From a virus, in IMG/VR virus record IMGVR_UViG_3300025018_000052, positions 1 to 40,444 of that record: 40,444 bases of DNA; one strand, 5' to 3'. Shown here piece after piece: positions 2,319-40,444 of the stretch (position 1 is its first letter; each line of letters opens with the position of its first letter). The position numbers and the translations under genes are program-made. A model generated the notes under the pieces. It worked only from the letters and a program-made list of their open reading frames with translations. It made no database searches and was not told the origin of the DNA.

Positions 2319-2705
2319 ATGGAGGCACAAATAACAATTCATAATGTTAAAACAGGAGACAGTGGTCCCAAAAGAGCGGTTTTGTCTATAAAGGCCTTTT
2401 TGTTAAATCAATATATAGAAACTCTAAGAACAGAGGCAAACAGCGTATTTGATAAGAACGCTTCCTCTCGTTTTGAGTCTTTTCCGTTGTTAAAGCTTGT
2501 AGATTCTTTTGATACTGGGGAGGAGTTTATTTATAAGACTGTAGAAGATCTTCCATCTGAAAGTGTTTTTAATTCTAAAAACGATCCTGTTTTATATATT
2601 TTGCCCAATGATTGTTCTGTTCACATGGGCCTCAATTTAATCGCTCCGGCTAAAAAAGTTACTCCGCATGCCGTAAAAGAAGAGGCACAAAATGAAAGGT
2701 CTTGA
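2319..2705 (+). CDS. Hypothetical protein between terminase and portal
   Basis: 128-aa ORF on the same strand as its neighbours, overlapping the next gene by 14 nt. No motif recognised. Confidence 0.5.
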   Translation: MEAQITIHNVKTGDSGPKRAVLSIKAFLLNQYIETLRTEANSVFDKNASSRFESFPLLKLVDSFDTGEEFIYKTVEDLPSESVFNSKNDPVLYILPNDCSVHMGLNLIAPAKKVTPHAVKEEAQNERS

Positions 2706-4692
2706 TTTTTACAATAAGAAGTGGGGAAAAGACTCGGATCAAAAGGTCCATAAAATCCTTTTGAGACTTTCTAAAATGAAAGAAAGAAGACATCACTTTG
2801 AAAAAATGTGGAGAAACTCTCTTTTGTCTTTCGTTGCTTTTGCTATATATGATAAAGACGCTGGCCCAGGAAAACTACAGTACGACATAGAAAAATCCCC
2901 AGAAATTCAATCTTATTACAACAATCTTATTGGTGGTGGATTTAAATATTCGGATGTTAGGTATCCTTTAGAGTTTTCTATTGTGATGAGAAAGATGGCA
3001 ACTGAAATTCCAAACTTCCCAGATTTAAGATGGATTGTTGAGGGGGAGAAAGATCAATCTCCAGCGGTCCTTTGGAAGCACGTCTACAACAGCATTACGT
3101 ATGATTCTGAATTAGATTATGAAACTTTTGAGCTATGGCTTGGAAAAAATGTTTTTGGAACTTCTATAAGTTGGTCACGTTTAGAAGAGAACACTTATGA
3201 AATTAAGGAGCCGTCAGTTGATGACAGTGGAAAAATATCTTGGAAAAACAAGAAGAAAACTGTTCATGAGTTCCAGTGTGATAGTGTGGACCTTAGAAAT
3301 GTGTTGATTGACGATAACTGTAAAAAGTCTTCACTTAAAGACGCTGATGACTGTGCAGTGTTTGAATACTTGTCGGAGGATAAGATTAGAAACCTTTACC
3401 CAGATATGCACTTTGGTGTGGACGTTCCAGAAGGAGTTGATCCTTCTAAGTGTTTTGCTCCAGTCTCAACTTCTCACACTTTTCAAGATCTTGATGAGTT
3501 GTACGGTGGGAATCAAAAACAGGTTTATGAACTCATTCATTATTACAATGTGAGAACAGATTCTTACGTGAGAATAATGAACGGCAAAGAGTTTTTACCG
3601 GAAACAGGAATAATTCAAAAAACTTACAATGGGAAAAAGATGTTACCAATAGCTTTTTTTGTGGATCACAAAATACCCGGAGTCCCTTATGGATATGGGG
3701 AGCCCGTGATAGCTAAGGCTTTTAGGGAAATAAAAAACAAAGTACGAAATGTTATTTTTGATGTTACAAAAAAAGTTGCAAAACCTACTATTGCGGTTGA
3801 TCCATTGTCTCCTTTTAAGGAAGAAAGCTATGTGTGGGGGCAGGATTTTATTAGAGTAGCCCCTCGGGACTTAATGCCTCTCAACATAACAGCCAATCTT
3901 GATCCGGCAATGAATTTAGATAAAACTACAGATAATGATGTAATTATTACTACAGGAATAAACATAACAGACACGGCAAATACTGGCTCAAATGAAACCG
4001 CTACAAAAACTGTTATCAGAAAAGAGTCTCAGGTTGCGGTTGTTGAGTTGGGAATGAGATTCAATACTTCCGTAGGATTAAGACGCTTTCATCTCATAAA
4101 CTCTTGCATTCTTTTGCTCTATATAAATACTCCAGTCTTCGATAGCGAGAATCAGAAACGGTCAATTGTTACTAAAAACGAAAAAATGTTTAGGTCAAAA
4201 GGTCCTAATAAATTTACTACAGAGCCTAAGAAAGGAGAGCATGTCTTCACTTTTAAAGGAGAGGATTTGAAATATACTTTCAAACCAATCCCCGAACTTG
4301 GAAATATCGCAGTAACTAAAACTCTCGAAAAAGGAATGTTCATGGAGGGATCTGAATTGTTATTCAGATATTCCCCAGAAGCATTAGACAAAGCTGGTCT
4401 AGCAGACTTCATTTGTCAACAATACAGCATTCCAGATACGGTTTTAGCACAAAAGAAAAAGACAATTTTAGATTCTGATCCGGACTTAATCGCACAGAAC
4501 GCAGGTGCGATATTACCGGAAGAGGTTAAACAAGCCAATATTAATAAAATAAATAATAATGCCCAGAGTTACGAACTTAGTCAAGCGATTAATTCGCCCG
4601 AAACTTTACTTGGAGGAGCAGGCCCAGAAGCAATGGGAGGAGCGTCAGGAGCACCTAGCAATGACACTTCTGGCTCTATACCAACAGTCTAA
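2692..4692 (+). CDS. Putative portal protein
   Basis: 666-aa ORF just downstream of terL and upstream of the scaffold and capsid genes, with a low-complexity Gly/Ala/Ser C-terminal tail. The call rests on synteny and size only. Confidence 0.55.
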   Translation: MKGLDFYNKKWGKDSDQKVHKILLRLSKMKERRHHFEKMWRNSLLSFVAFAIYDKDAGPGKLQYDIEKSPEIQSYYNNLIGGGFKYSDVRYPLEFSIVMRKMATEIPNFPDLRWIVEGEKDQSPAVLWKHVYNSITYDSELDYETFELWLGKNVFGTSISWSRLEENTYEIKEPSVDDSGKISWKNKKKTVHEFQCDSVDLRNVLIDDNCKKSSLKDADDCAVFEYLSEDKIRNLYPDMHFGVDVPEGVDPSKCFAPVSTSHTFQDLDELYGGNQKQVYELIHYYNVRTDSYVRIMNGKEFLPETGIIQKTYNGKKMLPIAFFVDHKIPGVPYGYGEPVIAKAFREIKNKVRNVIFDVTKKVAKPTIAVDPLSPFKEESYVWGQDFIRVAPRDLMPLNITANLDPAMNLDKTTDNDVIITTGINITDTANTGSNETATKTVIRKESQVAVVELGMRFNTSVGLRRFHLINSCILLLYINTPVFDSENQKRSIVTKNEKMFRSKGPNKFTTEPKKGEHVFTFKGEDLKYTFKPIPELGNIAVTKTLEKGMFMEGSELLFRYSPEALDKAGLADFICQQYSIPDTVLAQKKKTILDSDPDLIAQNAGAILPEEVKQANINKINNNAQSYELSQAINSPETLLGGAGPEAMGGASGAPSNDTSGSIPTV

Positions 4693-19908: not shown

Positions 19909-22900
19909 ATGGTATTAAACTGGAAAGATCTTCAAAAAAAGAAAGATCAGTTAGTAAAAACGGTCAATGTTATTGGTACAGGTCTTGCAGAAACACAAAA
20001 GCAAGCTGATATAAAAAAATCAGCGAAAAAAATAACAGATGTTAGAACTACAAAGCAATATCCCGGGGTCCCTATCACTAAAATAACAAACACCCCAAAG
20101 CCTTTATATGGGAACACGAGCTTAAGTCCATCAATGGCGGAAAATGTTTTGATTAATAAAGGAATTACTCCTAGTCCGACAAATGTTAAAAATTTTTCGA
20201 TAAAAGAAGATCCTACAAAAGGTGTATTACCTTCTAGTTTGAAAAACGACAATCGATCTGCGAAACAGAAACAAGAAGACAGTGAGCGAGCAAAAGAATA
20301 TTACAATTTTTATAATACAAATATAAGGAGAGCTAAAGAGGCTTGGGATATGGGAAATGCTACAGTTTTAGGAATAAAATCTGGAACTATATTGAGAGCA
20401 AAAAAACTTATTCCAACTTCAATTAGAGCAATTGCTGAAAATATTAACATGGATCCGTTTGGGCAACTTGATATGTTTGGAAAAAGAAACATGTCAGAAC
20501 TTGAACAAGCAAGAGAAGAGTATTCAGTTATGAAAGGGGAAACGGAGGACGTTTATTACAACTCCACGCTTGCACGGAATCCTTTGTATAACTGGGCAAT
20601 GGACACAATAAAAGATGTTGAGATAGAGGATGAGGATATTAGAAGACTTGCAACAGAGGGAAAGAGTGAACTTGTTAAGGAGGTTTTCAACATAGCACAA
20701 TCTTCCGCTTCTTTTTTGGCTACGGTTGCGGCTACGGTTATAACTAAAAATCCTACAGCATTAGCCGCTTTTGGAACATCCCTAGACAGTCTTGATACTT
20801 ACAATGAGGCAAGAAAAACACAAAGTCCATCCGGAGCTCTTATGTCTGTAAGTGCAGACGCTTCTGTTACTTTTGCTTTGGAAAAAATAGGTTGGGACGC
20901 TCTTATGGATACTTGGTCCAAACCATTAGCAAAACAAATATCCGACAAAATTCCACTCTTTAAAAATATTACTTTAAAAGCCCCTGTCGCAACAGCCATT
21001 ACAGGCAATGCGGTGTCTTCTGGAATCACGGAAGGTGTTCAAGAGGTTGTTCAAACTATGTGGCAAAATGCCGTGGCAAAATTTGGATATGATCATACAC
21101 GGGGAATAATGGACGGAGTTGTTGAAGCTTTCTTACTCGGTTCAGTTTTGGGAGGTGGAGCAACGGCAGTTTATCAAACAAAACAAGCTATTGAAGACAA
21201 GGAGAATATAAATAAGGCCAAAGAAGAGTTGAAGTCAAAGCTTGGTGTTGATGACACTCAAGCTCAAGCTTTAGCTTCATACTTACACAGTTTTACAAGA
21301 ACAGAATCTGGAATGTTTAAAAACAAAGTAGATTCAATGTTTAAAGAAAAGAGAACAGCAAATTATAAAGGACTACAAGACGCAGGCTCAAGACCTGGCA
21401 TAGATATTCCCGGGGAATTGCCTGTTCCGGAAAAAGTTACAACAGCCCCAGTAGTGAGTAAAGAAAAAGAATACAAACCAACTAGAAAGGTCCCGGAGGC
21501 TCAAGCTTATAATAACAGTGATTTCTTTTATGAACTGGATTATCACGGGGAAAGAGTTACAACAGATGGTGTTGTTCTTGAATTTAATTCAACAGTTAGT
21601 GCACCAAAGAATAAAAACACTTCTGGTAGGGTTCTTACTCAAGAGAATATTGATAGAATAGTTCCGGAAGGCGATTTAAAACCATTAAGCACCAAAGCGG
21701 TTTATACAAATGGGGCTTCTCTTAATGGGAAAGGCAAACAAAAACTAGAGCTTGTTTGGATGGGAGAGCCTAGTTCGAAAGTAGGGGAAGGGGTTGTTAT
21801 TAAGAAACAAATTTTTGATTATATAAAAGGGAAATACCCTTTAGCAAGCTTTAAATATAACGGCAGTTCAGATAGTTCTATTGCGGTTTTTGAAGGGGAA
21901 AAGATTGTTTCCTTGTTCATGCCTTTGACTAATAACTTTCAAAATACTCAACTTGGGGAAGAAAGTGAGCTATATTGGAGAGCGGAGGAATTGACAGGTA
22001 ACTCAAATGTTGATAGAATAGAATCAGATTTAAAAGACAACACAAATGATACAAGTTCCAAAAGACAAATTTCCTCTCCTAGCGGAGTATCAGGAGAACA
22101 ATCCGGAGGGGTATATGCAGACAATCAACAATCTCCGGAAAGCGGACAGAGAACCCCTAGCCAAAGAGAGCGAATATTGGGGGCAGATCGAGAGCGATCT
22201 GGAACATCTAAGGGGGGCTTAAATAAAAAGGCTAAAGAACTTTTAGATTCTGGAAAAAAGCCAGAAGATTTTACCGATGAGGATATAGAGCTTTTGAAAA
22301 GTTATAGTGGAATGGGTGGATCTGGAGAAGCTGGGAGAGGTTTACTTGATGAATACTACACCCCTCCAAAAGTTATTGATAAGATGTGGGCTCTTGCAAG
22401 AAAGCATGGATTCACGGGCGGATCAGTTCTTGAGCCTAGTGCGGGAGTGGGTAGGTTTATTGATCGTGGACCGGATGAAAATGTTAAATATACGGCACTT
22501 GAGATAGATGATACATCTTCCAAAATTGCAAAAATAGTATTAGGAAAAAAAGCAGATGTTAAACAAATGCCTTTTGAGAATCTTTTTGTAACAGAAACTG
22601 GCAAAGCTATAGAAATAGAAAATACATACAATTTAATTATAGGAAACCCGCCATACGGAGAACACCGTGGGTATTATAAAGGGTTAGGGGAAGAATCAAA
22701 AATCTCTAAATATGAGGATTATTTCATTAAAAGGTCCCTAGATTTAGCAAAGGATAATGGCCTAGTTGTAATGGTGGTCCCTAGTGGATTTTTGAAAACG
22801 ACAGTGTCTTATTCAAAAAAACAAATAGCTAAAAGTGGGGAGCTTGTAGAGGCTTACCGTTTACCGGAAAAGATTTTTGACAAGACTTCTATTGGTACAG

Positions 22901-25900
22901 ATATTTTAGTATTTAAAAAGAATACTACTGCGGACGACAACCTTTTAGAGCAACGTCTTGATAGTTTAGCAGGAGATTCTTATTTTAAAGAAAATAAATC
23001 AAAAATTTTAGGAGAAACAAAAGAAAGAAAATCAAGATTTGGAAAGATGGAAGTGTATGTTACTGGGAATGAGGATGTTTTAGACAACATAGTATTAACA
23101 GAGTCTCAAGATAACGGACCGAAAGTTTTCAAGGAAGTTACTGAAAAGATAACTAAAAAGAAAAAAGCACTTGAAGGCACCGAATCAACAGCTAAAGTAG
23201 AGGAATACTCATTAAGAGAGGAAACAGGTCAATTGTTTAGCACAATGCACCTTACAGACGCTGATAAGAATATTTGGAGGAATAAGTCGGCTGATGGAAG
23301 TCTCGTTATCAAAAACTTAACAGGAGCTGAAATTAACACTCTTAATATATTTAACGGAAAATACTTTGATGACTTTGATTATTTACAGGGAAATATTTAC
23401 GAAAAAATAGACGCACTTGAAAATGAAAACATTTCTGAAGAGAAAAAAGACGAGCAAAGAGCAAAGCTTGAGAAAATTTTACCTAAGCCAAAGAAATTAG
23501 AGAACATCTATCTCAATCCTTTAGGGGATTTTGCTTCTAGTTTTAAATATGAAACCTCCACGGCTAGATCTGATGTAGAGACTCTTACTTTAAAAGAAGG
23601 ATTTCTTGATTATCTTAGAGGACTCCCTAGAGACGCTTTCGCACCTTCTGATATGTGGGAGACTATGGGGTATGTGAGGGGGGACCGAGTCAACACAAGA
23701 GGGGATGTTGTTTTGGCAAATACTATTAAGAAGAGAAGAAAACATGTTGCGGAAAAATTGTTTCCTAAATTTTTAGAAACTCTTGATAAAGACACTAAGA
23801 CTAAAATAGAAGATCAGTTCAATAAAGAAAAAAATGGTTTTGTTTCCCCGGATTACAAGAAGGTACCATTATTCGTAGATGGTCTTGATATGACTTTTGG
23901 GGGAAGGGGCTTGAAGATTGGGGAATATAAGATAGATTCTATTGGCTTTCTCTCAAATAGAGGAACAGGAATCAATGCAAATGGTGTGGGATTGGGTAAA
24001 ACAATGATGGCCATAATATCAACCGCTCAAGATGTTCAGAAGGGTTGGTATAAAAGACCTTTGTTTATTGTTCCAAAAGGAGTTTATAATAAATGGATTG
24101 AAGAGATCCGTTTACTTTTCCCTAAACAGAAAGTCGTAGGGCTTGGAAACTTGGGTGTGGGGTATGGCATAAAATCTGCGGACGATATTAAAGCTAAGAT
24201 CAATGATGGAGATTTTACTGTAATGACTTATGAGGCTATTGCTCAATTAGGTTTTAAACCAGAAACTCAATCAAGTCTACTTGGGGAAATTAATAATGCT
24301 TATACGGAAGTGGGAAATAAAACAGAAAGGGCAAGAGCAAAAAAAATGGAGCAAATTCAAGATATTTCAGGAAAAGGAAAAATCCGGGCGGAAATAAAAG
24401 TTGAGGATTTGGGCTTTGATAATTTAATCGTAGATGAGGCTCATAAGTTTAAGAACATTTTTTCAAGAGCTAAGGAAAACAAAGACAGCGACAGCAAAGC
24501 ACAATCGGGTAGATGGGGAGGAATAACAGGGCAGTCTTCCGCAAGGGGGGTTAAAATGTGGTTATTATCTCAATATGTTCAAAATAAAAACGACGGAAGA
24601 GGAGTTAAGTTATTGACAGCTACACCGTTCACAAACAACCCCTTGGAGTTTTACAATGTATTGTCTCTTGTTGCGATGAAGGACATGAAGGCAATGGGTG
24701 TAGATAACATTAATACCTTTATGGATACTTTTTTGAAGACCACTAAAAAGTATGTTGTAAAATCTGGAGGTAAATATGATTTGGCGGATGTTGTTGAAGA
24801 TTGGCAGAACAAGGATATTTTAAAGGGGCTTATAAAAAGATATATAGATTTCAAGGATGGAGAAGATTATGGAGTTATAAGGCCTACAAAATTTAAAAAA
24901 GACTACAGATTTAACGCTACAAAACAGCAACTTGAGTATTTGCAAAAAGCACAAGAACTCCTAGATCCCAAACTAAAAAACAAAGGGGGATCACTTATGT
25001 ATATAGATGAAGCAAAAAAAATAACACTTTCCCCTTATCTTTCAAGATACTACAACGGTCCATTGCCTACTCCAAAAGAATTTGTGGAATCTTCTCCAAA
25101 ACTAATGGGAATGATGACGATGATCAAGGCGAACAGAAAAAAAACAGGACAAGTTATTTATTTTCCTTATGAGGTTGATCAAATGCCTCTACTTCGAGAA
25201 TACCTAGTTGATGTGTTAAAATATAAACCATCGGAGGTTGGTATTATTCACGGGAAAATTGATGACAACGTAAGGGAAAGAGTCAAGAAAGATTTTAATT
25301 CAGGAAAAGTAAAGGTAATTATAGGATCAGACGCAATTAAAGAAGGGGTAGATTTACAAGAGAGGTCTACAGATCTATATCTTACATCTTACCCCTGGAC
25401 GCCTACAGACGTGATACAGGTTGAGGGTCGAATACATAGACAGGGAAATATTTATAAAAATGTAAGAATTAATTTTTTATCTTTAAAAGATTCTGTAGAT
25501 TCGTTTCTTTTTCAGAAGCTTGATACAAAAACTAAAAGACTTGCAAATGCAGACGCTATAACTCAAACACTTGAAGGGGACAACATGGACTATGAATCAA
25601 TGACATCTGATCTTATTACAGATCCAGCCTTTAAGCTTCAAGTGAAAACGGCAATTAAAAAAGAAAGGGCAGACACTAAAATTAATGGACTTAAAAGTGA
25701 AATAGCTTTACTGGAAGAACAGACTAAGAAATATAAGGAAGCAGAGGCGGAGATACAAGTTACTCAAGAGTGGCTTGATGATCCACGCAATGCCGAGTCT
25801 TGGAATATGGATAATTACAGAAAAAAGAACAAGAAATCAACTAAAACTCTTGAAACGCTAAAAGAAAGGAATGTTGATCCAGAAGTTAATCAGGCTAGAA

Positions 25901-28900
25901 TATCTGAACTCGAAAAAGTTTTAGAGGCTACAATTGCTAAAAACAAAGAATCAGAAGAACGGCTAAAAGAAGAATCGAAAAATTTACCGGAATTTATTGA
26001 GAAGGATCCGGAGCCAAACGACTTTAAGGCACTTGAAAAACAGCTTCTTGAAGAGAATAAAACTTTTATCGTTTTAAAAGGGAAAGATGAAGATCAGACC
26101 GTCAAGGCTTCAAAAGCTTCTTCCTTAGAAGAGAACGTTTTGCCTTCGGTCATGATGGAATCCAGCATAGAAAGTGAACCTTTAACAGGGGCGGATGTTC
26201 CGTCCTTAAAGAGTTCAGAGACCTTGCCGGATGAATCTTTGGAGAGCATTGATGAAAAATCAAAGACTCTTTCTTCCCAGAGAATGAAATTTCTTGAGAG
26301 ATTTGACATGGGCTATGGATTAGTTGACACTACAAGGATAGATGATTTTATTAGCTTTGTCAATACTAATGTTTCAGAATATGATCAGTCCGTCAAAGAT
26401 CTTACTATAAAAACTCAATCAGAGGCATATTTTTACAGGGTAAAAGAATCTAAGAGTGTGGCTTCAAAGCTTAAGAGAAAGAGAGAAAAGACACTTGGCA
26501 CTTTAAATGATATGATTGGAGGGACTATTGTTACTGAAAATATTGATAATGTTTTAGGTGAATACAAAAAAGACAATTCCGAAAAGAGTATTGATGATAT
26601 GAGGACTCGTCCTTCTATGTGGGGATATGATGGTGTTCATCTTGAGAAAGAATTATCTTCCGGGATGTTTACGGAGATACAAGTACATACAAGAGAAAAA
26701 CTTTACCAAAAAGAATACGCTCATACTATTTACGAAAAATACAGGGAATATTTTGAAAGCAATGAGGTAGTTGAACTTTCAGATCAAGCCTTAAAGGATA
26801 AGATGGGCGAGGCGGTATATTCTGAATATTTAAAAGATATTCAACTTTCTCGTGATGTTTATGCTGGGATAGTTCCGGTCCCTCAAGAATTTATCGACAA
26901 GGCAAATGAGAGAATTAATAAAAACAAGATTGTTTTAGAAGAGGAAGTATCAACAGAAAACAAAACGGAAAGCGTAATGACAGGCTCGGCACAAACAGTT
27001 GATGGATTAAAACCCGTCAAGGTATCAAAAATAACTAAGGACTTATCCTTAGTTGATGTTGGTGGTAAAGAGATGTTGACGGAGGCTAAGACAAGTGAAG
27101 AAATCAAAGAGGAAGTATCTAGTTTTATTGAAGATCAATCAAATATAAAAGAAGGGGATGTTGTGGAAATTAATGAAAAATCCCCGGATTTATCCCCCAT
27201 GGAAAAGCAGGCGGTTGTCGTTTCCGGAAATAAAGATATGTCGGTTGTAGAGGTTGATGGAGGCTTTAAGGTTGTCGAAAGCAAGGACTTAAAACCGCTA
27301 GAAATATCTGATGAAATTAAAGAGCCTAAAAAACCTAAAAGACTTAAAGTTGCAAATGAAAAGACAGCGATAGAAGATTTACCGCCGTCTCCTCCAGAAA
27401 GTGATTTACTTGAAACAGATGGTCCGGATGATGGAACTGTAGATTTTGATTTAACAAAGTTTGAAAGAATGAGAGTTATTGTTCAAGATAAAGCAATAGG
27501 GCTTGATAAAGCTCAAAAGATTATGGGAGAAGGGAAAAATGTTCAAGAAGATGTTGATATGTATATGGAGTACGAGCTTTATTCTGGAGCAGTAACAGCG
27601 GCTATAGAAAAATTTGAGAGAAACGAATGGAAGCCATTACAAGATGAACTCGTAAAATTTACCAGTCTCTCCCCAGATCATTCACAGCTAATACAGAATT
27701 ACTTGTGGCTTTCACATGCTGAAGAACGGAATAAAAATCACTATGATGGGGCGGCTGGAATAACGACAAAAGAAGCGAGGATGAAATTGAAAGAGTTAAA
27801 GCAATTACCGCAGTTCCCAGAAATGCAGAAAATAGCACAACAATTCCAATCTCTAGCGAAAAAACTTCCCGAATATTTGTATAAAAACGGGATGATAAAG
27901 CAGAAAGAGTATGAATCACTTTTGACATTGTATAAAAATTATATTCCTCTACAAAGGATATTACCAGACAATGGCGACTTTAGTCAAGCTTTAGGAATAG
28001 GAAAAGGGTTTGACACTCGTGGAACTGACATAAAAAAGGCTAAGGGAAGTGATTTAGAGGTTGCAAACATTTTAGAGTCAATTCGTTTGAACTGGGAAAG
28101 GGCTATTATAAGGGTCCATAAAAACAATGTAGGAAAGACGGTTTATAAGTTTGCTAAAGACTATAGTAAACTATCTTTGTTTAAATTGGTTCGTGGAAAA
28201 CTTAAGCTAATGGAAGTTGATGGGGATATAATAAGGACTATTGAGCCTCCTTCTGGGGATAATATCCTTACTGTAAAAATTGATGGAGTTCAAAAATACA
28301 TAAAAATAACAGATCCTACAGTTGCTAATGCTTTAAAGAATCTTGATTCTCAACCTATGAATGTTGCAATGAGGACTCTTTTATCTTTTACAAGATTTTA
28401 TTCAATGATCAATACTTCATTGAATCCAGAGTTTATCATAAGCAATGCAATTAAAGATATTCAGACGGCCTCTCTTAACACTTCTAAAGAGTTTGGGATG
28501 TTTGGCATGGCTCGTAATGCAAAAGTTTTTCCAGAGGCATATAAAGGAGTATTTGACGCCTTGAGGGGGAATGATACCACTATGGCTAAACTTTATAATC
28601 AGATGAGGGAACTCGGAGGTACTACGGGTTATTATAATTTATCGAACAGAGAAGAAATCGCAAACAAAATTAGAGAAGGAGAAGACGCTTTGACTCTTAA
28701 TAGTGTAGGTAAACTAAAAAGTGGTGGAAAAAAAGTTCTTGAGTTAATAGACTTTATCAATGATGTTGTAGAAAATGGAACACGTCTTGCGGTTTATAAG
28801 GTTGCTATTGATCAAGGTTTTTCTCCAAAGAAAGCCGCTCAATTAGCGAAAAATGCAACTGTTAATTTTAACAAGAAAGGAACTATTGGTCCGGGCCTTA

Positions 28901-29997
28901 ATGCTCTTTACGCATTTTCAAATGCTTCAATACAGGGATCTGCGAATGTAATTAAAACTCTTTCAAATCCTAAGAGCTTTGCAAAAATTACAACATTAAT
29001 ATCTGTTGTAAGTGCATTACTTCAATCTTGGAATAGGGCTATTGATGAGGAAGGGTATGAAAAAATAGACTCGTCGATCCGTGAATCAAACTGGGTATTT
29101 ATGGTTGGAGGAGGGAATTACATCAAATTAGGGCTTCCTTATGGATATAATGTAATAAAAGTTACGGCAGATAATATTTATGAGCTTTCTATAGGAAAGA
29201 CTGTTGCTATGGATAGTTTTAAATCTGTCTCGGGGGCTATGATTAATGCTTATAATCCTGTTGGTGGAGCTGATTTATTCAATGCTTATGTGCCTACATT
29301 CTTTAGGCCAATACAAGAAGTTTATGTTAATAAAGGTTGGCACGGAGGGAATATAGCCCCAATGAACATGACTGGGGTTAAGGAGAGTTTAAACTATTCT
29401 GAAAATGAAAATCCGATCTTCGTTAATTTGTCTAAGTATATGAGCAAATTTACAGGTGGAAGTTATGGAAGGAGGGGAGTTTTGGAAGTTTCTCCAGCTG
29501 GGATTGAATATTTATGGAATCAATATACAGGTGGTGTGGGACGGTTTATAATGGGAAATGCTAAGACTGTAGTCAATCTTGCAACTGATCCAGAAAACAT
29601 TGAGACAAAAGATATTCCTTTTTGGAGAAAAGTTGTTGGAAAGGTTGATGTCGAAAGGTACAACAGAAATTATATTTATGATATAATTGATAAATCTAAA
29701 AAGACTCCTTTAACAGAAGACGAAAAGATGGATTTCATGAGGGTATTAAAAGAAGAAGGGGAAAACAAAAGAATAACAATGAAAGAGGCTAAAGACTATA
29801 TGAATAAAGCTAAAAGCGGACAAGAAGACCTTACACAGACTAAAAAAGTTGTAGATTATATTGAGCGTCAAAATTGGTCCGAGGAAAAACTTAATCAGTT
29901 TCTTAATGAAAAACTAACAGATAACTCTTGGACCAAAGCTCAAGGATTAGGAACATTCACTAAAACCCAAATAAAGATGATTAGGAGCGAGTTGTAA
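19909..29997 (+). CDS. Giant polyvalent protein (3362 aa): N6-adenine DNA methyltransferase, SNF2-family helicase, RelA/SpoT-like nucleotidyltransferase and a large C-terminal module
   Basis: A single uninterrupted ORF. MTase at about nt 22340-22925: YYTPP, motif I LEPSAGVGRF, motif IV NPPYG. SNF2 helicase at about nt 23960-25480: GVGLGKT, VDEAHKFKN, LLTATPFTNNPLEFYN, QVEGRIHRQGN. RSH-like domain at about nt 26422-26760: RVKESKSVASKLKRK, NDMIGGTIV, WGYDGVHLE, TEIQVHT, AHTIYEKYR. Confidence 0.85.
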   Translation: MVLNWKDLQKKKDQLVKTVNVIGTGLAETQKQADIKKSAKKITDVRTTKQYPGVPITKITNTPKPLYGNTSLSPSMAENVLINKGITPSPTNVKNFSIKEDPTKGVLPSSLKNDNRSAKQKQEDSERAKEYYNFYNTNIRRAKEAWDMGNATVLGIKSGTILRAKKLIPTSIRAIAENINMDPFGQLDMFGKRNMSELEQAREEYSVMKGETEDVYYNSTLARNPLYNWAMDTIKDVEIEDEDIRRLATEGKSELVKEVFNIAQSSASFLATVAATVITKNPTALAAFGTSLDSLDTYNEARKTQSPSGALMSVSADASVTFALEKIGWDALMDTWSKPLAKQISDKIPLFKNITLKAPVATAITGNAVSSGITEGVQEVVQTMWQNAVAKFGYDHTRGIMDGVVEAFLLGSVLGGGATAVYQTKQAIEDKENINKAKEELKSKLGVDDTQAQALASYLHSFTRTESGMFKNKVDSMFKEKRTANYKGLQDAGSRPGIDIPGELPVPEKVTTAPVVSKEKEYKPTRKVPEAQAYNNSDFFYELDYHGERVTTDGVVLEFNSTVSAPKNKNTSGRVLTQENIDRIVPEGDLKPLSTKAVYTNGASLNGKGKQKLELVWMGEPSSKVGEGVVIKKQIFDYIKGKYPLASFKYNGSSDSSIAVFEGEKIVSLFMPLTNNFQNTQLGEESELYWRAEELTGNSNVDRIESDLKDNTNDTSSKRQISSPSGVSGEQSGGVYADNQQSPESGQRTPSQRERILGADRERSGTSKGGLNKKAKELLDSGKKPEDFTDEDIELLKSYSGMGGSGEAGRGLLDEYYTPPKVIDKMWALARKHGFTGGSVLEPSAGVGRFIDRGPDENVKYTALEIDDTSSKIAKIVLGKKADVKQMPFENLFVTETGKAIEIENTYNLIIGNPPYGEHRGYYKGLGEESKISKYEDYFIKRSLDLAKDNGLVVMVVPSGFLKTTVSYSKKQIAKSGELVEAYRLPEKIFDKTSIGTDILVFKKNTTADDNLLEQRLDSLAGDSYFKENKSKILGETKERKSRFGKMEVYVTGNEDVLDNIVLTESQDNGPKVFKEVTEKITKKKKALEGTESTAKVEEYSLREETGQLFSTMHLTDADKNIWRNKSADGSLVIKNLTGAEINTLNIFNGKYFDDFDYLQGNIYEKIDALENENISEEKKDEQRAKLEKILPKPKKLENIYLNPLGDFASSFKYETSTARSDVETLTLKEGFLDYLRGLPRDAFAPSDMWETMGYVRGDRVNTRGDVVLANTIKKRRKHVAEKLFPKFLETLDKDTKTKIEDQFNKEKNGFVSPDYKKVPLFVDGLDMTFGGRGLKIGEYKIDSIGFLSNRGTGINANGVGLGKTMMAIISTAQDVQKGWYKRPLFIVPKGVYNKWIEEIRLLFPKQKVVGLGNLGVGYGIKSADDIKAKINDGDFTVMTYEAIAQLGFKPETQSSLLGEINNAYTEVGNKTERARAKKMEQIQDISGKGKIRAEIKVEDLGFDNLIVDEAHKFKNIFSRAKENKDSDSKAQSGRWGGITGQSSARGVKMWLLSQYVQNKNDGRGVKLLTATPFTNNPLEFYNVLSLVAMKDMKAMGVDNINTFMDTFLKTTKKYVVKSGGKYDLADVVEDWQNKDILKGLIKRYIDFKDGEDYGVIRPTKFKKDYRFNATKQQLEYLQKAQELLDPKLKNKGGSLMYIDEAKKITLSPYLSRYYNGPLPTPKEFVESSPKLMGMMTMIKANRKKTGQVIYFPYEVDQMPLLREYLVDVLKYKPSEVGIIHGKIDDNVRERVKKDFNSGKVKVIIGSDAIKEGVDLQERSTDLYLTSYPWTPTDVIQVEGRIHRQGNIYKNVRINFLSLKDSVDSFLFQKLDTKTKRLANADAITQTLEGDNMDYESMTSDLITDPAFKLQVKTAIKKERADTKINGLKSEIALLEEQTKKYKEAEAEIQVTQEWLDDPRNAESWNMDNYRKKNKKSTKTLETLKERNVDPEVNQARISELEKVLEATIAKNKESEERLKEESKNLPEFIEKDPEPNDFKALEKQLLEENKTFIVLKGKDEDQTVKASKASSLEENVLPSVMMESSIESEPLTGADVPSLKSSETLPDESLESIDEKSKTLSSQRMKFLERFDMGYGLVDTTRIDDFISFVNTNVSEYDQSVKDLTIKTQSEAYFYRVKESKSVASKLKRKREKTLGTLNDMIGGTIVTENIDNVLGEYKKDNSEKSIDDMRTRPSMWGYDGVHLEKELSSGMFTEIQVHTREKLYQKEYAHTIYEKYREYFESNEVVELSDQALKDKMGEAVYSEYLKDIQLSRDVYAGIVPVPQEFIDKANERINKNKIVLEEEVSTENKTESVMTGSAQTVDGLKPVKVSKITKDLSLVDVGGKEMLTEAKTSEEIKEEVSSFIEDQSNIKEGDVVEINEKSPDLSPMEKQAVVVSGNKDMSVVEVDGGFKVVESKDLKPLEISDEIKEPKKPKRLKVANEKTAIEDLPPSPPESDLLETDGPDDGTVDFDLTKFERMRVIVQDKAIGLDKAQKIMGEGKNVQEDVDMYMEYELYSGAVTAAIEKFERNEWKPLQDELVKFTSLSPDHSQLIQNYLWLSHAEERNKNHYDGAAGITTKEARMKLKELKQLPQFPEMQKIAQQFQSLAKKLPEYLYKNGMIKQKEYESLLTLYKNYIPLQRILPDNGDFSQALGIGKGFDTRGTDIKKAKGSDLEVANILESIRLNWERAIIRVHKNNVGKTVYKFAKDYSKLSLFKLVRGKLKLMEVDGDIIRTIEPPSGDNILTVKIDGVQKYIKITDPTVANALKNLDSQPMNVAMRTLLSFTRFYSMINTSLNPEFIISNAIKDIQTASLNTSKEFGMFGMARNAKVFPEAYKGVFDALRGNDTTMAKLYNQMRELGGTTGYYNLSNREEIANKIREGEDALTLNSVGKLKSGGKKVLELIDFINDVVENGTRLAVYKVAIDQGFSPKKAAQLAKNATVNFNKKGTIGPGLNALYAFSNASIQGSANVIKTLSNPKSFAKITTLISVVSALLQSWNRAIDEEGYEKIDSSIRESNWVFMVGGGNYIKLGLPYGYNVIKVTADNIYELSIGKTVAMDSFKSVSGAMINAYNPVGGADLFNAYVPTFFRPIQEVYVNKGWHGGNIAPMNMTGVKESLNYSENENPIFVNLSKYMSKFTGGSYGRRGVLEVSPAGIEYLWNQYTGGVGRFIMGNAKTVVNLATDPENIETKDIPFWRKVVGKVDVERYNRNYIYDIIDKSKKTPLTEDEKMDFMRVLKEEGENKRITMKEAKDYMNKAKSGQEDLTQTKKVVDYIERQNWSEEKLNQFLNEKLTDNSWTKAQGLGTFTKTQIKMIRSEL

Positions 29998-31112: not shown

Positions 31113-31369
31113 AGTGTGTTTAAAAATTTAGTAAAGTTTTCAACATCTTTTGCCGGAGTGTCTTTATAAAAAATAATAACTTTTCCTAAAGGACTTTCTT
31201 TATAAAACATTTTACGAGTGATGTTTAATCCGTATATTTCCCCAAAAGTTTTCTTGAATCCATATTTTAGAAAAAATTTTAGGATATAAAAAGAATATTT
31301 ATAAGACCCATACTTAATGGCTGAAAGTTTTGTAATTTCTGTAATGTTTTTTTTAAAGTATTTTTTCAT
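31109..31369 (-). CDS. Hypothetical protein
   Basis: 86-aa ORF with a 4-nt overlap with the downstream gene and a 17-nt overlap with the upstream gene, on the same strand as its neighbours. Confidence 0.4.
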   Translation of the reverse strand: MKKYFKKNITEITKLSAIKYGSYKYSFYILKFFLKYGFKKTFGEIYGLNITRKMFYKESPLGKVIIFYKDTPAKDVENFTKFLNTL

Positions 31370-31832
31370 TCAAAATATAAGTTAAAATATGCTCAATAAC
31401 TTTACAATTAAAACCGTTCCCTAAACATTTATATCTTTGAGTATTCGAAATGCCTTCGGTGTAATTATCTGGTAAGGACTGTAGGCGTTCGCACTCTATC
31501 GGTGTTAATTTTCGGATAAAAAAATCCTCTTGAACCATTGAATCGGTTTGAACTGTTGTCAATGAATTTGCTTTGTCGGTCCTGTTATATTCTGGCTGTT
31601 TCCCTTCTCCCCTATTTCGCAAAGCAACGGGGGATACGAGCAATTGACCCGCAACCGCACTTGAACATTGCGGATTCGTTCCGAGCCTTTTTATTTCTGG
31701 AAAGTTTTTTTCAGAAATTTGAATTGCGTATTTATCGACCTCGCTTGAATAATATTCCTCAACTGGAATGTTTAGGTTTTTAAGAGCTTGTCTTGCGATT
31801 GATATTCCATCAAAGAGTGATAATACGTCCAT
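31353..31832 (-). CDS. Truncated C5-cytosine DNA methyltransferase-like protein (N- and C-terminal motifs only; core missing)
   Basis: 159 aa. Motif-I-like VLSLFDGIS and SSEVDKYA at the N-terminus. Motif IX/X-like RKLTPIECERLQSLPDNY ... CLGNGFNCKVIEHI at the C-terminus. Only a scrambled motif-IV-like GTNPQCSSAVAGQ lies between them. No ENV or QxRxR motifs. Confidence 0.6.
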   Translation of the reverse strand: MDVLSLFDGISIARQALKNLNIPVEEYYSSEVDKYAIQISEKNFPEIKRLGTNPQCSSAVAGQLLVSPVALRNRGEGKQPEYNRTDKANSLTTVQTDSMVQEDFFIRKLTPIECERLQSLPDNYTEGISNTQRYKCLGNGFNCKVIEHILTYILNEKIL

Positions 31833-32283
31833 TGTGTTTTTTTAAAGTTGGATAACAATTGTAAAAAGCTAACAAACTGGGAAAAGGGGCGGATCCACTT
31901 CCTTTTTGTAGCCCCTCAAATTTGAGCCTTCCTTTTATAAAAGCAAGATGAGCTTTTCCCAAAACATAATCATGAAAATATTTAGTGTCTGTCCTTGAAG
32001 GCATTAGTAATACAATTGTTGCTTTTGAACTTTCTTCGTAGCATTTTTTAATCCACTTTGGCATATCTCGTCCATAAGGTGGATTACAAAAGACTGTTTC
32101 GTTTTCCCATGATTGTATGAGACCATCTTGTTCTTTTGTGAAAAATTTTCGACACTTTGCATTGAGCGGTGTAGCACATGGATCAAGCGTAAAATTGTAA
32201 GACTCGTTTAATTCATTAAAAAGTCCTTGTGGTGTTCCCCATTCTACAGACTCGCTACTTAACATTGTTTTTATATTTTTCAT
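31810..32283 (-). CDS. dam: Phage Dam-type DNA N6-adenine methyltransferase
   Basis: 157 aa. EWGTPQGLFNELN..FTLDPCA..NAKC ... VFCNPPYGR ... LLMPSRTDTKYFH ... FIKGRLKF follows the small phage Dam family layout. Confidence 0.8.
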   Translation of the reverse strand: MKNIKTMLSSESVEWGTPQGLFNELNESYNFTLDPCATPLNAKCRKFFTKEQDGLIQSWENETVFCNPPYGRDMPKWIKKCYEESSKATIVLLMPSRTDTKYFHDYVLGKAHLAFIKGRLKFEGLQKGSGSAPFPSLLAFYNCYPTLKKHNGRIITL

Positions 32284-38289: not shown

Positions 38290-38586
38290 ATGGAAAATAA
38301 AAATGGCTACCGTCCATTGGGACGCAGAGTAGTGGTCAAACGCCTCCCAAAGAATTCTGGGGGCTTTGTTCTTTCGCATGAGTTGCAGAATGAAGGTCAT
38401 CCGGACGTGGGAATCATTACCGCAGTGGGAGACCTTCTCCCCCGAGATGTCGTCCGTGGGATTGAGGTGGGAAAAACAGTTTATTACACAAGATTTTCTC
38501 CAGTCAAAATACCAATGGAAGGGGAAGACGAAGAGGTAAATCACTATTTTATTGAGGTCAAAAATATTTTAGGCATTAAACTTTAA
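38290..38586 (+). CDS. groES: GroES/Cpn10-like co-chaperonin
   Basis: 98 aa. YRPLGRRVVVKRL, mobile-loop-like PKNSGGFVL, GIITAVGD, VGKTVYY, and YFIEVKNILGI follow the Cpn10 pattern. Confidence 0.8.
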   Translation: MENKNGYRPLGRRVVVKRLPKNSGGFVLSHELQNEGHPDVGIITAVGDLLPRDVVRGIEVGKTVYYTRFSPVKIPMEGEDEEVNHYFIEVKNILGIKL

Positions 38587-38599
38587 ACAAAAAAATTAC

Positions 38600-40240
38600 A
38601 TGGAATCAAAAAAAATAACTGGAGGTGTTGAGGCAAAAAAACAAATACTTAGAGCCGTAAAAGAAATGGCTGATGTAGTCGGGTCAACAATGGGATCACG
38701 TGGCAGAAATGTTTTACTTGAGTCTTTAGCACGCCCCGGGAAACCGGAAGTCGTAAACGACGGTGTTAAAATTGCACGAGAGTTTTTTTATTTTGATCCC
38801 GTTGAAAATATGGCAGTTCAATTGATAAAAGAGGCTTCTATCCGCACTAATGATGACGCAGGAGACGGCACGACATGTGCAACTGTTCTTGCTGGAGCGA
38901 TTGTAGAAGAAGGCTATAAACACATTATCAACGGAGCTTCTCCGGTGCTTTTGAAACATGTTTTGTGTGAAGAGGCTAAACAGGTTCAATCAGAGCTTCA
39001 AAAGCTTTCTGTAAAAATTAAAGACGCAGAGCAATTGATTCAAGTTGCTCAAATATCAGTTCAAGATGAGAAACTCGGAGCAATGATCGGGTCCGCAATG
39101 TTCAAGTGTGGCAAAGACGGAGCTATTTCGGTTGAGGATAATGTCAATGATGAGATTGTAGTTGAAGAATCTAAGGGAGCAAGATTTGAAATGGGGCACG
39201 CTGGAGGAGTTATTTCTGATCACGATAGGTTTGAACACAAAGGCGAGAACGTGCGGTTTTTAGTTATGAACTACAACATTGAGGATCACGAATTTGATAA
39301 TAGATGGCTACCATTCATTAATAAACTTATTAAGTTAGATGAAAAAGGCCATGTAAGCAAAGTTGAAGTTCCGGCTTTAGTTATTATAACGGAAAAACTT
39401 CCATTACGAGTTTTGCAATTTATTAACGACCCCCATAATTCGTCTCTAGTCAAAATTACATGGGTTCGCCCTCCTTCTTTTGGAGACAAAAGGACCGAAA
39501 TTTTGAAAGACTTTTGTGCACTTACTGGTGCAAAACTTGTGGATAAAGAAGACGCAGTTTACATCAACCGCATTTCTGTAGAGGAATTAGGACAAGCTAA
39601 AACGGTTCACATAACAAGATCTCACACCACTGTTTCTTTAGAAGAAGATTCTGTTTTATTGAAAAACAGAATAGAAACTATTAAGACTCAAATAGAAACA
39701 AGCAATTCAGCGCTGGAAATTGAAAACTTGAAAAAAAGATTAGCAGTTTTAACTGGTGGAATGGCAACTGTAAAAGTTGGTGGTTCAACCGGTGCAGAAG
39801 TGAAGGAGCTAAAGCTTAGGATTGAAGACGCTATCAACGCTTCAAGAAGTGCTATGGAAGCTGGACTTGTTCCGGGTGGTGGAGTAGCTTTATTGGACGC
39901 CGTAAAGGCAGTTGAGGCTAACGGATTGTCTACCGTTGGTTTTTCTTTTGTTCAATCTTTTTTAAGCCCATTCCGTAAAATATTGGAAAACGCAGGATAT
40001 GCGAATGAGGCGATGGTTGATTTTATTAAAAAGAGAGAAAAGGGCGAAGGAATCAATGTTACCAACTTTGAGACGGGAGACATGATAAAAATGGGAATAG
40101 TTGATCCCATTAAAGTTATTTCTCGTGCACTTGCAAATGCAGTCTCTGTTGCTGGTCTTTTATTCACAGCAGATTTTTCCTTAACTATAGAAAAAAACAA
40201 CGGGCTTGAAACAATTAAAAAAATATTAAAAGATGGTTAA
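38600..40240 (+). CDS. groEL: GroEL/Cpn60-like chaperonin
   Basis: 546 aa. GSRGRNVLLE, VVNDGVKIAREF, ENMAVQLIKEASIRTNDDAGDGTTCATVLAGAI, PPSFGDKR, LTGGMATVKVGG, and VPGGGVALL. It lacks the C-terminal GGM repeat tail. Confidence 0.92.
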   Translation: MESKKITGGVEAKKQILRAVKEMADVVGSTMGSRGRNVLLESLARPGKPEVVNDGVKIAREFFYFDPVENMAVQLIKEASIRTNDDAGDGTTCATVLAGAIVEEGYKHIINGASPVLLKHVLCEEAKQVQSELQKLSVKIKDAEQLIQVAQISVQDEKLGAMIGSAMFKCGKDGAISVEDNVNDEIVVEESKGARFEMGHAGGVISDHDRFEHKGENVRFLVMNYNIEDHEFDNRWLPFINKLIKLDEKGHVSKVEVPALVIITEKLPLRVLQFINDPHNSSLVKITWVRPPSFGDKRTEILKDFCALTGAKLVDKEDAVYINRISVEELGQAKTVHITRSHTTVSLEEDSVLLKNRIETIKTQIETSNSALEIENLKKRLAVLTGGMATVKVGGSTGAEVKELKLRIEDAINASRSAMEAGLVPGGGVALLDAVKAVEANGLSTVGFSFVQSFLSPFRKILENAGYANEAMVDFIKKREKGEGINVTNFETGDMIKMGIVDPIKVISRALANAVSVAGLLFTADFSLTIEKNNGLETIKKILKDG

Positions 40241-40409
40241 AATTGAAATAACTTGTGATTATTGCGGACACATGTGGTTTGCAGAAAGAAGGGGAGATGG
40301 AGCCTTAAACAAATTCTATGTTCCCACTTTAGATGCTCGGACCTGTTGTGAAAAATGTGTGCAAAGGGCTTCTAATCTTTTAATTCAAACAGATGGTCCC
40401 GAAAGGTAA
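40233..40409 (+). CDS. 58-aa zinc-ribbon-like protein spanning the circularisation junction
   Basis: Manual translation gives MVKIEITCDYCGHMWFAERRGDGALNKFYVPTLDARTCCEKCVQRASNLLIQTDGPER (CxxC ... CxxC). The start overlaps the groEL stop. The last 92 nt are duplicated at 1-92, and the stop overlaps the TerS-like start by 17 nt. Confidence 0.45.
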   Translation: MVKIEITCDYCGHMWFAERRGDGALNKFYVPTLDARTCCEKCVQRASNLLIQTDGPER

Positions 40410-40444
40410 AAAAAAACCGCAGGGGAAAATAGATAAAGTTAAAC
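40318..40444. repeat. Terminal direct repeat, copy 2 (identical to 1-127)
   Basis: Base-by-base identity with the first 127 nt. Confidence 0.95.

Follow-up and report, generated by a model that had tools for sequence, protein, structure and literature searches.

The window analysed here is the whole of IMG/VR record IMGVR_UViG_3300025018_000052 (positions 1 to 40,444; 40,444 nucleotides), the DNA of an uncultured virus, and our subject is a RelA/SpoT homologue (RSH) synthetase domain embedded in the 3362-residue product of a giant open reading frame (ORF) of this phage. The window ends in an exact 127-bp direct repeat (1-127 and 40318-40444; GC content 36.9%) and can therefore be regarded as a complete genome of ~40.3 kb, either circularly assembled or terminally redundant; practically the same contig is present in two independent datasets (ENA ERZ27293386, 40458 bp; JGI 3300008255, 40440 bp). 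Genes for a large terminase, a portal protein, a capsid-like protein, a protein with a carbohydrate-binding module, a DUF3383 protein resembling E217 gp31 and a CHAP-domain protein follow one another on the plus strand, and the giant ORF closes this structural gene block, all of whose genes lie on one strand. In the giant protein Pfam recognizes, in this order, an N6-adenine DNA methylase, an SNF2 helicase, a RelA_SpoT domain and the domain LPD38 (Table 1). As set out below, the RSH domain is genuine, it occupies a slot in which relatives of the protein carry other effectors, and with moderate confidence we read it as an active pyrophosphokinase that would be delivered to the host together with the phage DNA.

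A preliminary description of this DNA had placed an alarmone-synthetase-like RSH domain within the giant virion-module protein, quoting a peptide encoded at positions 26422-26760 of the plus strand. Translation returns this peptide exactly as quoted, as residues 2172-2284 of the giant protein, with the five synthetase motifs (syn1 to syn5) in order, an arrangement far beyond chance; the assignment was then borne out by Pfam, by a family profile and by the fold predicted with AlphaFold2. Searched against the Pfam family PF04607, as the same description had proposed, the excised segment yields a near full-length match of 30.7-31 bits (E 3.4e-7 to 4.2e-7), which exceeds the 27-bit cutoff of the family. 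The complete fold is wider than the span originally marked, and residues ~2119-2345 constitute a genuine RSH synthetase domain.

The relatives that define the family of this domain were obtained by searching exhaustively with HMMER through 1.84 billion cluster representatives, of which 99 sequences matched at E<=1e-3 and 21 at E<=1e-10. The 20 closest relatives and the query make up a family alignment of 21 members with 24-59% identity (alignment A1), to which 79 distant relatives can be added for a set of 100 sequences in all. PF04607 is matched by 21/21 members of the alignment, with a best E of 2.2e-13. A profile built from the alignment and run against the sequences of the PDB recovers RelP (8.7e-10, 6fgk; 41.7 bits), Escherichia coli RelA (3e-8; 36.6 bits), a pneumococcal small alarmone synthetase (SAS; 4.2e-8), Tas1 (1.6e-6), FaRel2 (4.6e-6; 29.5 bits), RelQ (5e-4) and CapRel (2.6e-3; 20.5 bits), the first unrelated match standing at E 0.054. 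Single-sequence searches were blank: phmmer against the PDB and a word-indexed protein search found nothing for the RSH domain, neither megablast with the gene nor tblastn with the domain found anything among 50,697 phage records, and the RSH segment matched no RSH model in NCBIfam. Nor did confirmed relatives emerge from IMG/VR or from the GTDB representative genomes, whether the alignment or the single protein served as the query. The domain is thus highly diverged, and since the single-sequence searches failed, the evidence for homology comes from the exhaustive HMMER search and from the profile that it yielded.

The predicted structure leads to the same family. An AlphaFold2 model of residues 2110-2350, computed on the family alignment, has a predicted local distance difference test (pLDDT) score of 88.6 and a predicted template modelling (pTM) score of 0.84, and is confident from model residue ~10 to ~236. 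It comprises N-terminal helices, a five-stranded core framed by helices, a long syn5 helix and a C-terminal three-helix extension, in the element order of the SAS enzymes; the three helices that follow the core give way to a polar linker. The preliminary description had proposed to superpose a predicted structure on RelQ or CapRel, and in a Foldseek comparison of the model with the PDB the top 50/50 hits are RSH synthetases (E 1.3e-6 to 9e-4, probability 1.00, target-normalised TM <=0.62). Among the best matches in the viral structures of BFVD are proteins of uncultured phages that bear the name RelA/SpoT, a phage 'Tas1' and multidomain proteins whose names refer to ART-PolyVal or DdrB-like domains. 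Other nucleotidyltransferases of the Pol-beta type (CCA-adding, OAS/cGAS and MNT-type enzymes) appear in the fold searches only at E>0.07 and were ruled out.

Three further observations concern this family. Two conserved elements of the alignment lie outside the Pfam core: an N-terminal helix at residues 2122-2140, with the pattern S-T-x3-L-S-S-x-R-x2-F-L-x2-F, and a C-terminal element at residues 2305-2325, F-x2-D-V-x2-S-x-D-I-Y-x-G-K-V-x-V-P, with an invariant Gly and Pro; both are strongly conserved and may serve to bind substrate, to regulate the domain or to mark a site of processing. The RSH segment also gives a single PADLOC match, confined to the RSH core, to the candidate defence model PDC-S33 (E 1.1e-6), which points to the use of a related RSH domain by a candidate defence system, as yet uncharacterised, as well.

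Table 1. Coordinates of the giant gene, its domains and motifs, and the gene directly upstream
Feature	Position	Strand	Residues	Basis or role
CHAP-domain protein, 797 aa	17496..19889	+	CHAP at aa 582-650	PF05257 E 4.4e-6; directly upstream of giant gene
Giant ORF, phage-type large polyvalent protein, 3362 aa	19909..29997	+		ORF list, translation, Pfam
N4-type virion-RNA-polymerase-like N-terminal segment	20980..21237	+	aa 358-443	PHROG 2206, E 1.7e-8, profile positions 352-436/3406
N6-adenine DNA methyltransferase domain	22351..22941	+	aa 815-1011	PF02384 E 1.8e-9; PF07669 (Eco57I) E 1.3e-10
SNF2-type helicase (SNF2/ResIII N-lobe + Helicase_C)	23965..25446	+	aa 1353-1846	PF00176 3.9e-8; PF04851 8.8e-6; PF00271 2.6e-14
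Variable effector slot	26173..27033	+	aa 2089-2375	Between helicase and C-terminal module; BLASTP vs P0002
Complete RSH synthetase-fold domain	26263..26943	+	aa ~2119-2345 (~225 residues)	AlphaFold2 model, Foldseek, family alignment A1
Pfam RelA_SpoT core, syn1 to syn5	26437..26739	+	aa 2177-2277	PF04607 profile positions 2-109/113
syn1	26437..26478	+	R2177-V-K2179-x3-S2183-x3-K2187-x2-R2190	Predicted donor-ATP adenine stacking (R2177) and triphosphate binding (K2179, S2183, K2187, R2190)
syn2	26509..26526	+	D2201-M-I-G-G-T2206	Predicted catalytic Mg2+ Asp kept; second adenine-stacking Arg replaced by T2206
syn3	26623..26640	+	G2239-Y2240-D-G-V-H2244	Predicted acceptor-base-stacking Tyr and His kept; Ser replaced by Gly
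syn4	26674..26691	+	E2256-I-Q2258-V-H2260-T	Predicted catalytic Glu and Gln kept; canonical Arg replaced by H2260
syn5	26722..26739	+	H2272-T-I-Y2275-E-K2277	Ribose-contacting His (by position) and Y-x-K
LPD38	29050..29622	+	aa 3048-3238	PF18857 E 2.5e-36, profile positions 2-188/189

Roles were given to the residues of the active site by alignment of hidden Markov models to RelP and by identical spacing. In Staphylococcus aureus RelP, Arg78 and Arg112 sandwich the donor adenine, phosphate binding falls to Lys80, Ser84, Lys88 and Arg91 and Mg2+ binding to Asp107 and Glu174, and His190 is in contact with the ribose (PMC5794853); the equivalents in FaRel2 are R64/R95, K66/S70/K74/R77, D90 and E145/Q147, with Tyr128 in the G-loop (PMC11782079). 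The spacing of syn1 in the phage protein equals that of R78/K80/S84/K88/R91 in S. aureus RelP and R64/K66/S70/K74/R77 in FaRel2, and the motif is present in 20/20 close members that span the stretch, R2190 being kept in 19/21. The Gly, Tyr and His of syn3 are invariant in 21/21, as are the His and Tyr of syn5, where H2272 aligns with the His of RelP 'EHKIYYK' and so probably corresponds to the ribose-contacting His190. Altogether 12 residues are invariant or nearly so in the 21 relatives (R2177, K2179, S2183, K2187, R2190, D2201, Y2240, H2244, E2256, Q2258, H2272 and Y2275), and the positions of D2201, Y2240, E2256 and Q2258 are invariant in 100/100 sequences. Basic residues beside the acceptor Tyr, namely the R in 'DDFR' and a K/R after G-Y, are also kept in the clade. 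The motif-by-motif reading of the preliminary description, including the replacement of Arg by Thr in syn2 and by His in syn4, proved correct by alignment: T2206 aligns to the Arg of BsRelP 'DIAGVR', and the Arg position of syn4 is occupied by N/H/M/F among the close members, by H/M/Q/N/K among the distant relatives and by Arg in 0/100.

Since the catalytic residues are invariant or nearly so across the family, down to 24% identity, a functional active site can be argued, and the domain is probably catalytically competent. That it is instead a degenerate, non-catalytic fold, serving as a nucleotide-binding, regulatory or purely structural module, we consider improbable. The loss of two canonical Arg residues, one of which stacks on the donor adenine, would suit such a module, as would a marginal Pfam score and the failure to find an immunity gene, which a harmless domain might not be expected to need; yet D2201, E2256, the triphosphate-binding set and the acceptor Tyr persist to 24% identity, with D, E, Q and Y kept in 100/100 sequences, a pattern of invariance typical of purifying selection on an active site. 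Moreover Apk2, an RSH toxin of temperate phages, has Thr and His at these two sites and is an active enzyme. The loss of the Arg at T2206 is accordingly compatible with both membership of the RSH family and activity, because this proven enzyme also has no Arg at that site, five residues after the syn2 Asp (D+5).

A more difficult question is which acceptor an active domain would use. Compared with (p)ppGpp synthetases, Apk2 has R-Y-T for A-V-R in syn2, G-x-N for S-x-H in syn3 and Y-H for I-R in syn4 (PMC12226406). At these diagnostic sites the phage domain has G-G-T, G-V-H and V-H, agreeing with Apk2 in the T, the G and the H and differing from it in the syn2 Arg and the syn3 Asn. Across the clade the syn3 Ser is replaced by Gly or Ala, so that its [G/A]-x-H stands between the Apk-type G-x-N, found in 49/79 distant members, and the Gpk-type S-x-H. 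When the motifs of Apk2 were converted, the enzyme was inactivated and its specificity was unchanged (PMC12226406), and the syn motifs are for this reason suggestive, and not predictive, of substrate. We rank adenosine or mixed acceptors slightly above guanosine alone; a tRNA acceptor is unlikely, and so is a domain without activity.

A specific (p)ppGpp synthetase that imposes a stringent-like shut-off of host transcription and replication, which is the reading of Iyer et al., is possible, though we hold it doubtful. It has the advantage of a published prediction for polyvalent proteins (PMC5512222); the best profile matches in the PDB, RelP and RelA, are themselves (p)ppGpp synthetases, and the His of the guanosine-recognizing S-x-H in syn3, which is Asn in the Apk-type enzymes, is invariant in the clade. 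Against these points, the change of the syn3 Ser to Gly or Ala is that of the Apk enzymes, the residues at the Arg positions of syn2 and syn4 are those of Apk2 and not of Gpk, the phage-borne RSH domains fused to MuF that have been tested to date yield (p)ppApp exclusively (PMC12226406, PMC10083569), and (p)ppGpp restricts infection by at least phage T7 (PMC13483052). An enzyme aimed at translation, of the kind of the toxic small alarmone synthetases (toxSAS), is unlikely. The significant matches in the structure and profile searches do include CapRel and FaRel2, the Tyr that would stack on the acceptor is conserved, and the domain has an ordered N-terminal helical extension with a conserved Arg in 'LSSxRxxFL', an element of interest in that the N-terminal extension of FaRel2 binds tRNA (PMC11782079). 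The profile scores, however, favour RelP and RelA (41.7/36.6 bits) over FaRel2 and CapRel (29.5/20.5), the tRNA-targeting FaRel2 keeps both stacking Arg residues whereas the clade does not, and the basic residues that the alignment places beside the acceptor Tyr are as expected for a nucleotide acceptor. The phage, furthermore, has no tRNA genes in its genome and no RNA polymerase gene among its identified genes; it should need host translation, and a block of tRNA charging at entry would hurt the phage itself.

Turning to the protein that carries the domain, its combination of unrelated catalytic domains, the LPD38 signature and a mosaic content identify it as a large polyvalent protein of the phage type. 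LPD38 lies in a conserved C-terminal module (residues ~2520-3340) that matches PHROGs 14770, 616 and 10691, all of them families of giant proteins of phages, as well as part of the DarB-like antirestriction PHROG 10089; the SNF2 helicase region includes a stretch resembling DrmD of NCBIfam (E 7.1e-15). Nearly all of the 158 relatives of the giant protein have 2000-5900 residues and combine LPD, ART-PolyVal, Zeta-toxin, GGDEF, ParB and other domains. Near the N-terminus, the segment resembling the virion RNA polymerase (vRNAP) of N4-type phages lies in a Gly/Ala-rich hydrophobic region, at nearly the same distance from the N-terminus as in the N4-type vRNAP. Residues 223-506 are conserved in P0002, the closest relative of the giant protein, and residues 251-448 are common to P0127, P0131 and P0135, and this N-terminal stretch may be a packaging or ejection module shared by giant virion proteins. 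Neither Pfam nor the PHROGs detected a MuF domain in the giant protein. From the precedents of phi24B gp47, N4 and P1 DarB we infer that the virion contains a few copies of the protein, which pass into the cell along with the DNA. Proteomics of phi24B virions showed its LPD38 protein gp47 to be abundant, and gp47 has been proposed to be an ejection protein packaged in the capsid (bioRxiv 10.64898/2026.04.10.717836), and knock-down of the LPD38 polyvalent protein of phage PTXU04 impairs infection, which marks the latter as needed for efficient infection (bioRxiv 10.1101/2023.09.18.558157).

Within this carrier the RSH domain is one interchangeable effector module in a swappable slot. BLASTP aligns the giant protein with P0002 (58% identity) over residues 687-2088 and 2376-3362 and skips residues 2089-2375, in place of which P0002 has an unrelated insert of ~386 residues (its residues 2107-2492) with the Walker-A motif GGTGAGKT. 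This insert matches the Pfam Zeta_toxin family exactly at the cutoff (E 1e-4), a search of PDB sequences gave no support, and it may tentatively be called Zeta-toxin-like. P0121, found through its RSH domain, is a full-length orthologue with 55-59% identity from end to end, and its slot holds the RSH domain followed by an ADP-ribosyltransferase of the ART-PolyVal type (residues 2452-2614), so that two enzymes of toxin type stand side by side. Further close carriers of the RSH domain share one or the other end of the protein, the N-terminal module in the case of P0127, P0131 and P0135 and the C-terminal LPD38 module in that of P0125 and P0136. The base composition of the RSH cassette is ordinary (GC 0.357, against 0.364 +/- 0.017 for windows of the same size in the gene) and uninformative as to recent horizontal acquisition.

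These lines together lead to the reading that we favour with moderate confidence, namely that the domain is an active RSH pyrophosphokinase, an interchangeable module of a virion-packaged LPD38 polyvalent protein, and acts on host nucleotides at entry. The giant protein would be packed into the capsid in a few copies and enter the cell alongside the DNA, whereupon the RSH module, with host ATP as donor, would attach the beta,gamma-pyrophosphate to the 3'-OH of a purine nucleotide and so make (p)ppApp and/or (p)ppGpp, with a slight lean to adenosine or promiscuous acceptors. The nucleotide pools and alarmone signalling of the host would be disturbed at once, and the adjacent methylase-helicase module would meanwhile protect the incoming DNA. 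An enzyme of high turnover makes sense here because the cargo would be delivered in few copies. Pfam finds no integrase among the 36 ORFs scanned, and in such a genome the failure to find an immunity gene fits an enzyme that acts on the host.

An active domain might also serve some purpose other than entry, either late in the producing cell or, after lysis, as a weapon resembling polymorphic toxins and directed against competing phages or bacteria. We give this a low probability. Injection of the MuF-fused RSH toxins is itself still an open question (PMC10083569), and the slot holds toxin-type domains in relatives (ART, possibly Zeta-like), both of which leave room for such a role. The genes that follow the giant ORF, VRR-NUC and others, are nonetheless on the opposite strand and no downstream immunity gene was found, whereas genes for Tis1-like immunity proteins are present in every Apk2 cluster examined (PMC10083569); the LPD38 protein of phi24B is present in virions; and a domain fused to a methylase-helicase of the antirestriction type would be expected to act alongside the incoming DNA.

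Several observations weigh against an active entry effector and must be set beside the evidence for it. Measured in the whole giant protein, the PF04607 match scores 24.2 bits (E 4.3e-5), just below the cutoff. No peptidase of the MPTase family was detected in the giant protein by Pfam at E<=1 or by the PHROGs; this processing domain is frequent, though not universal, in polyvalent proteins. In the 36 ORFs Pfam also detected neither an HD-type hydrolase nor an immunity gene of the Tis1/IapK or Aph1 type, where Apk2 loci have immunity genes, although some of the small ORFs without assigned function could encode immunity proteins that are not enzymes. The lean to adenosine acceptors is weak, given the outcome of the Apk2 motif swaps. 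Nor is it obvious that alarmone production at entry benefits a phage, since the stringent response restricts T7, whose portal protein suppresses alarmone synthesis by RelA/SpoT (PMC13483052). Most specific to the clade is the donor site. Close members have T/S/V/M at D+5 and G/A at D+3 of syn2, and Arg is present at either site in 0/21; among the distant relatives Arg occupies D+5 in 33/79 and D+3 in 33/79, both in two sequences and at least one in 64/79. FaRel2, RelP and RelQ use a second adenine-stacking Arg and Apk2 has an Arg at D+3, and so donor binding may be weakened or altered by this clade-wide loss. The suggestion of the preliminary description that the two Arg replacements may mean a different substrate must be qualified: both are real, but they are family-wide and, in view of the Apk2 swaps, amount to no substrate code.

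Because both variants of the second adenine-stacking Arg and the syn4 Arg are lost in the clade, one may also envisage an RSH enzyme with a remodelled donor site, which would use a donor other than ATP or an unconventional acceptor and would be an anti-defence enzyme delivered with the genome. We rate this as very improbable; candidate acceptors would include a nucleotide of host immune signalling or the 3' end of a nucleic acid.

The pyrophosphokinase that we favour is best appreciated in comparison with known systems, the closest of which was described by Iyer et al. (2017; PMC5512222). These authors found RelA/SpoT domains in polyvalent proteins of the phage type and proposed that they trigger an alarmone-like host response; both RelA/SpoT and LPD38 were found in phage-type polyvalent proteins only, and repeated independent acquisitions were inferred (PMC5512222). 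An RSH domain in a phage polyvalent protein, together with the functional idea, is thus a category already published in 2017, to which the phage described here adds a somewhat unusual member. As in the cases of Iyer et al., the domain is an embedded module of a giant phage protein thought to be delivered with DNA, and LPD38, methylase and SNF2 domains co-occur. Those cases, however, were assigned to (pro)phages of Spirochaetes and Epsilonproteobacteria and have PBECR, DdrB-ParB or LPD3 partners, whereas the present one is a methylase-SNF2-RSH-LPD38 protein of an uncultured phage of 37% GC, belongs to a clade of 21 cluster representatives (E<=1e-10) that has neither Arg variant of syn2, and has no match in deposited phage genomes, IMG/VR or the GTDB representatives.

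The MuF-fused RSH toxins of temperate phages, exemplified by Apk2, synthesize (p)ppApp, and immunity genes lie downstream of them (Ahmad 2023, PMC10083569; Paulet 2025, PMC12226406). Apk2 resembles the present domain in being phage-borne on a head-associated carrier, a location that would apply to the giant protein by analogy, and in the Thr of syn2, the Gly of syn3 and the His of syn4. It differs in that the giant protein has no MuF domain, the RSH domain is internal (residues 2119-2345 of 3362) and not C-terminal, and no Tis1/IapK or Aph1 gene was found; D+3 of syn2, where Apk2 has the R of R-Y-T, is not Arg, syn3 has His in place of Asn, and no integrase occurs among the scanned ORFs. The (p)ppApp product of Apk2 is, moreover, proven, whereas the product of the phage domain is putative.

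Among cellular enzymes, RelP and RelQ (SAS2 and SAS1) give the best profile and structure matches (RelP 8.7e-10; Foldseek 1.3e-6) and have the same order of elements and the same syn1-syn5 set. They are free enzymes of ~210 residues, in contrast to a domain embedded in 3362 residues, and identity to them is 15-20%, with the syn2 and syn4 Arg and the syn3 Ser lost from the phage domain. The toxSAS effectors Tas1/Apk1, FaRel2 and CapRel have the same fold, give significant profile and structural matches, and are RSH enzymes used as weapons of conflict; unlike them, the phage domain has no PAAR, antitoxin or pseudo-zinc-finger partner and no adjacent small gene on the same strand, and it scores lower against them than against the housekeeping SAS enzymes. 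FaRel2, in addition, keeps both of its adenine-stacking Arg residues, whereas the phage clade is without the second. As a carrier, finally, the giant protein shares its size and its position in the structural module with phi24B gp47, P1 DarB and the N4 vRNAP, and more specifically LPD38 with gp47 and the N-terminal stretch with the N4 enzyme. The P1 DarB type combines a methylase with a helicase module, as the giant protein does. An RSH domain has been reported in none of these three proteins, whose virion packaging would extend to the phage protein by analogy.

The remaining genes of the window bear on this picture to different degrees. The 797-residue CHAP protein is probably associated with the virion, where it would degrade the cell wall or serve in ejection in concert with the giant protein, and the order of the two genes is kept in the contigs of P0121 (43.1 kb, L003) and P0002 (40.9 kb, L004). 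Beyond the giant ORF, the opposite strand encodes a VRR-NUC nuclease, DNA methylases, an M23 peptidase and a DnaB helicase, after which a GroES/GroEL pair returns to the plus strand. This pair consists of a GroES-like Cpn10 (38290-38586, E 3.3e-7) beside a GroEL-like Cpn60 (38600-40240, E 2.3e-48). Phage chaperonins are mostly known from phages much larger than the 40 kb of this one, and whether the pair aids in the folding of a 3362-residue protein is a question that can be asked. Two methylase genes adjoin on the minus strand (31353-31832 and 31810-32283). One member of this pair, an ORF of 159 residues, covers only the C-terminal part of a C5-cytosine DNA methylase (profile positions 242-322/324) and overlaps the end of the gene for a Dam-type N6-adenine methylase; this ORF may represent a methylase that is truncated or split, or else an unusual short version of one.

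The broader interest of these findings lies in the fact that RelA/SpoT domains of polyvalent proteins have had no experimental test to date. The clade is small, comes from metagenomes only and bears a distinctive donor-site signature, and that its phage is uncultured is a practical limit; the clade-wide loss of the donor-site Arg nevertheless poses a concrete question of structure and function. Biochemical proof of an unusual donor or acceptor, or direct evidence of an injected alarmone synthetase, would raise the importance of the family. A role as entry effector is the simplest reading for a complete small genome with no integrase or detectable immunity gene among its scanned ORFs. Should the domain prove active, a handful of injected molecules could shift the ATP/GTP pools of the host, or its alarmone levels, only seconds into infection, and an enzyme active at entry would stand in contrast to the strategy of T7, which suppresses alarmone synthesis.

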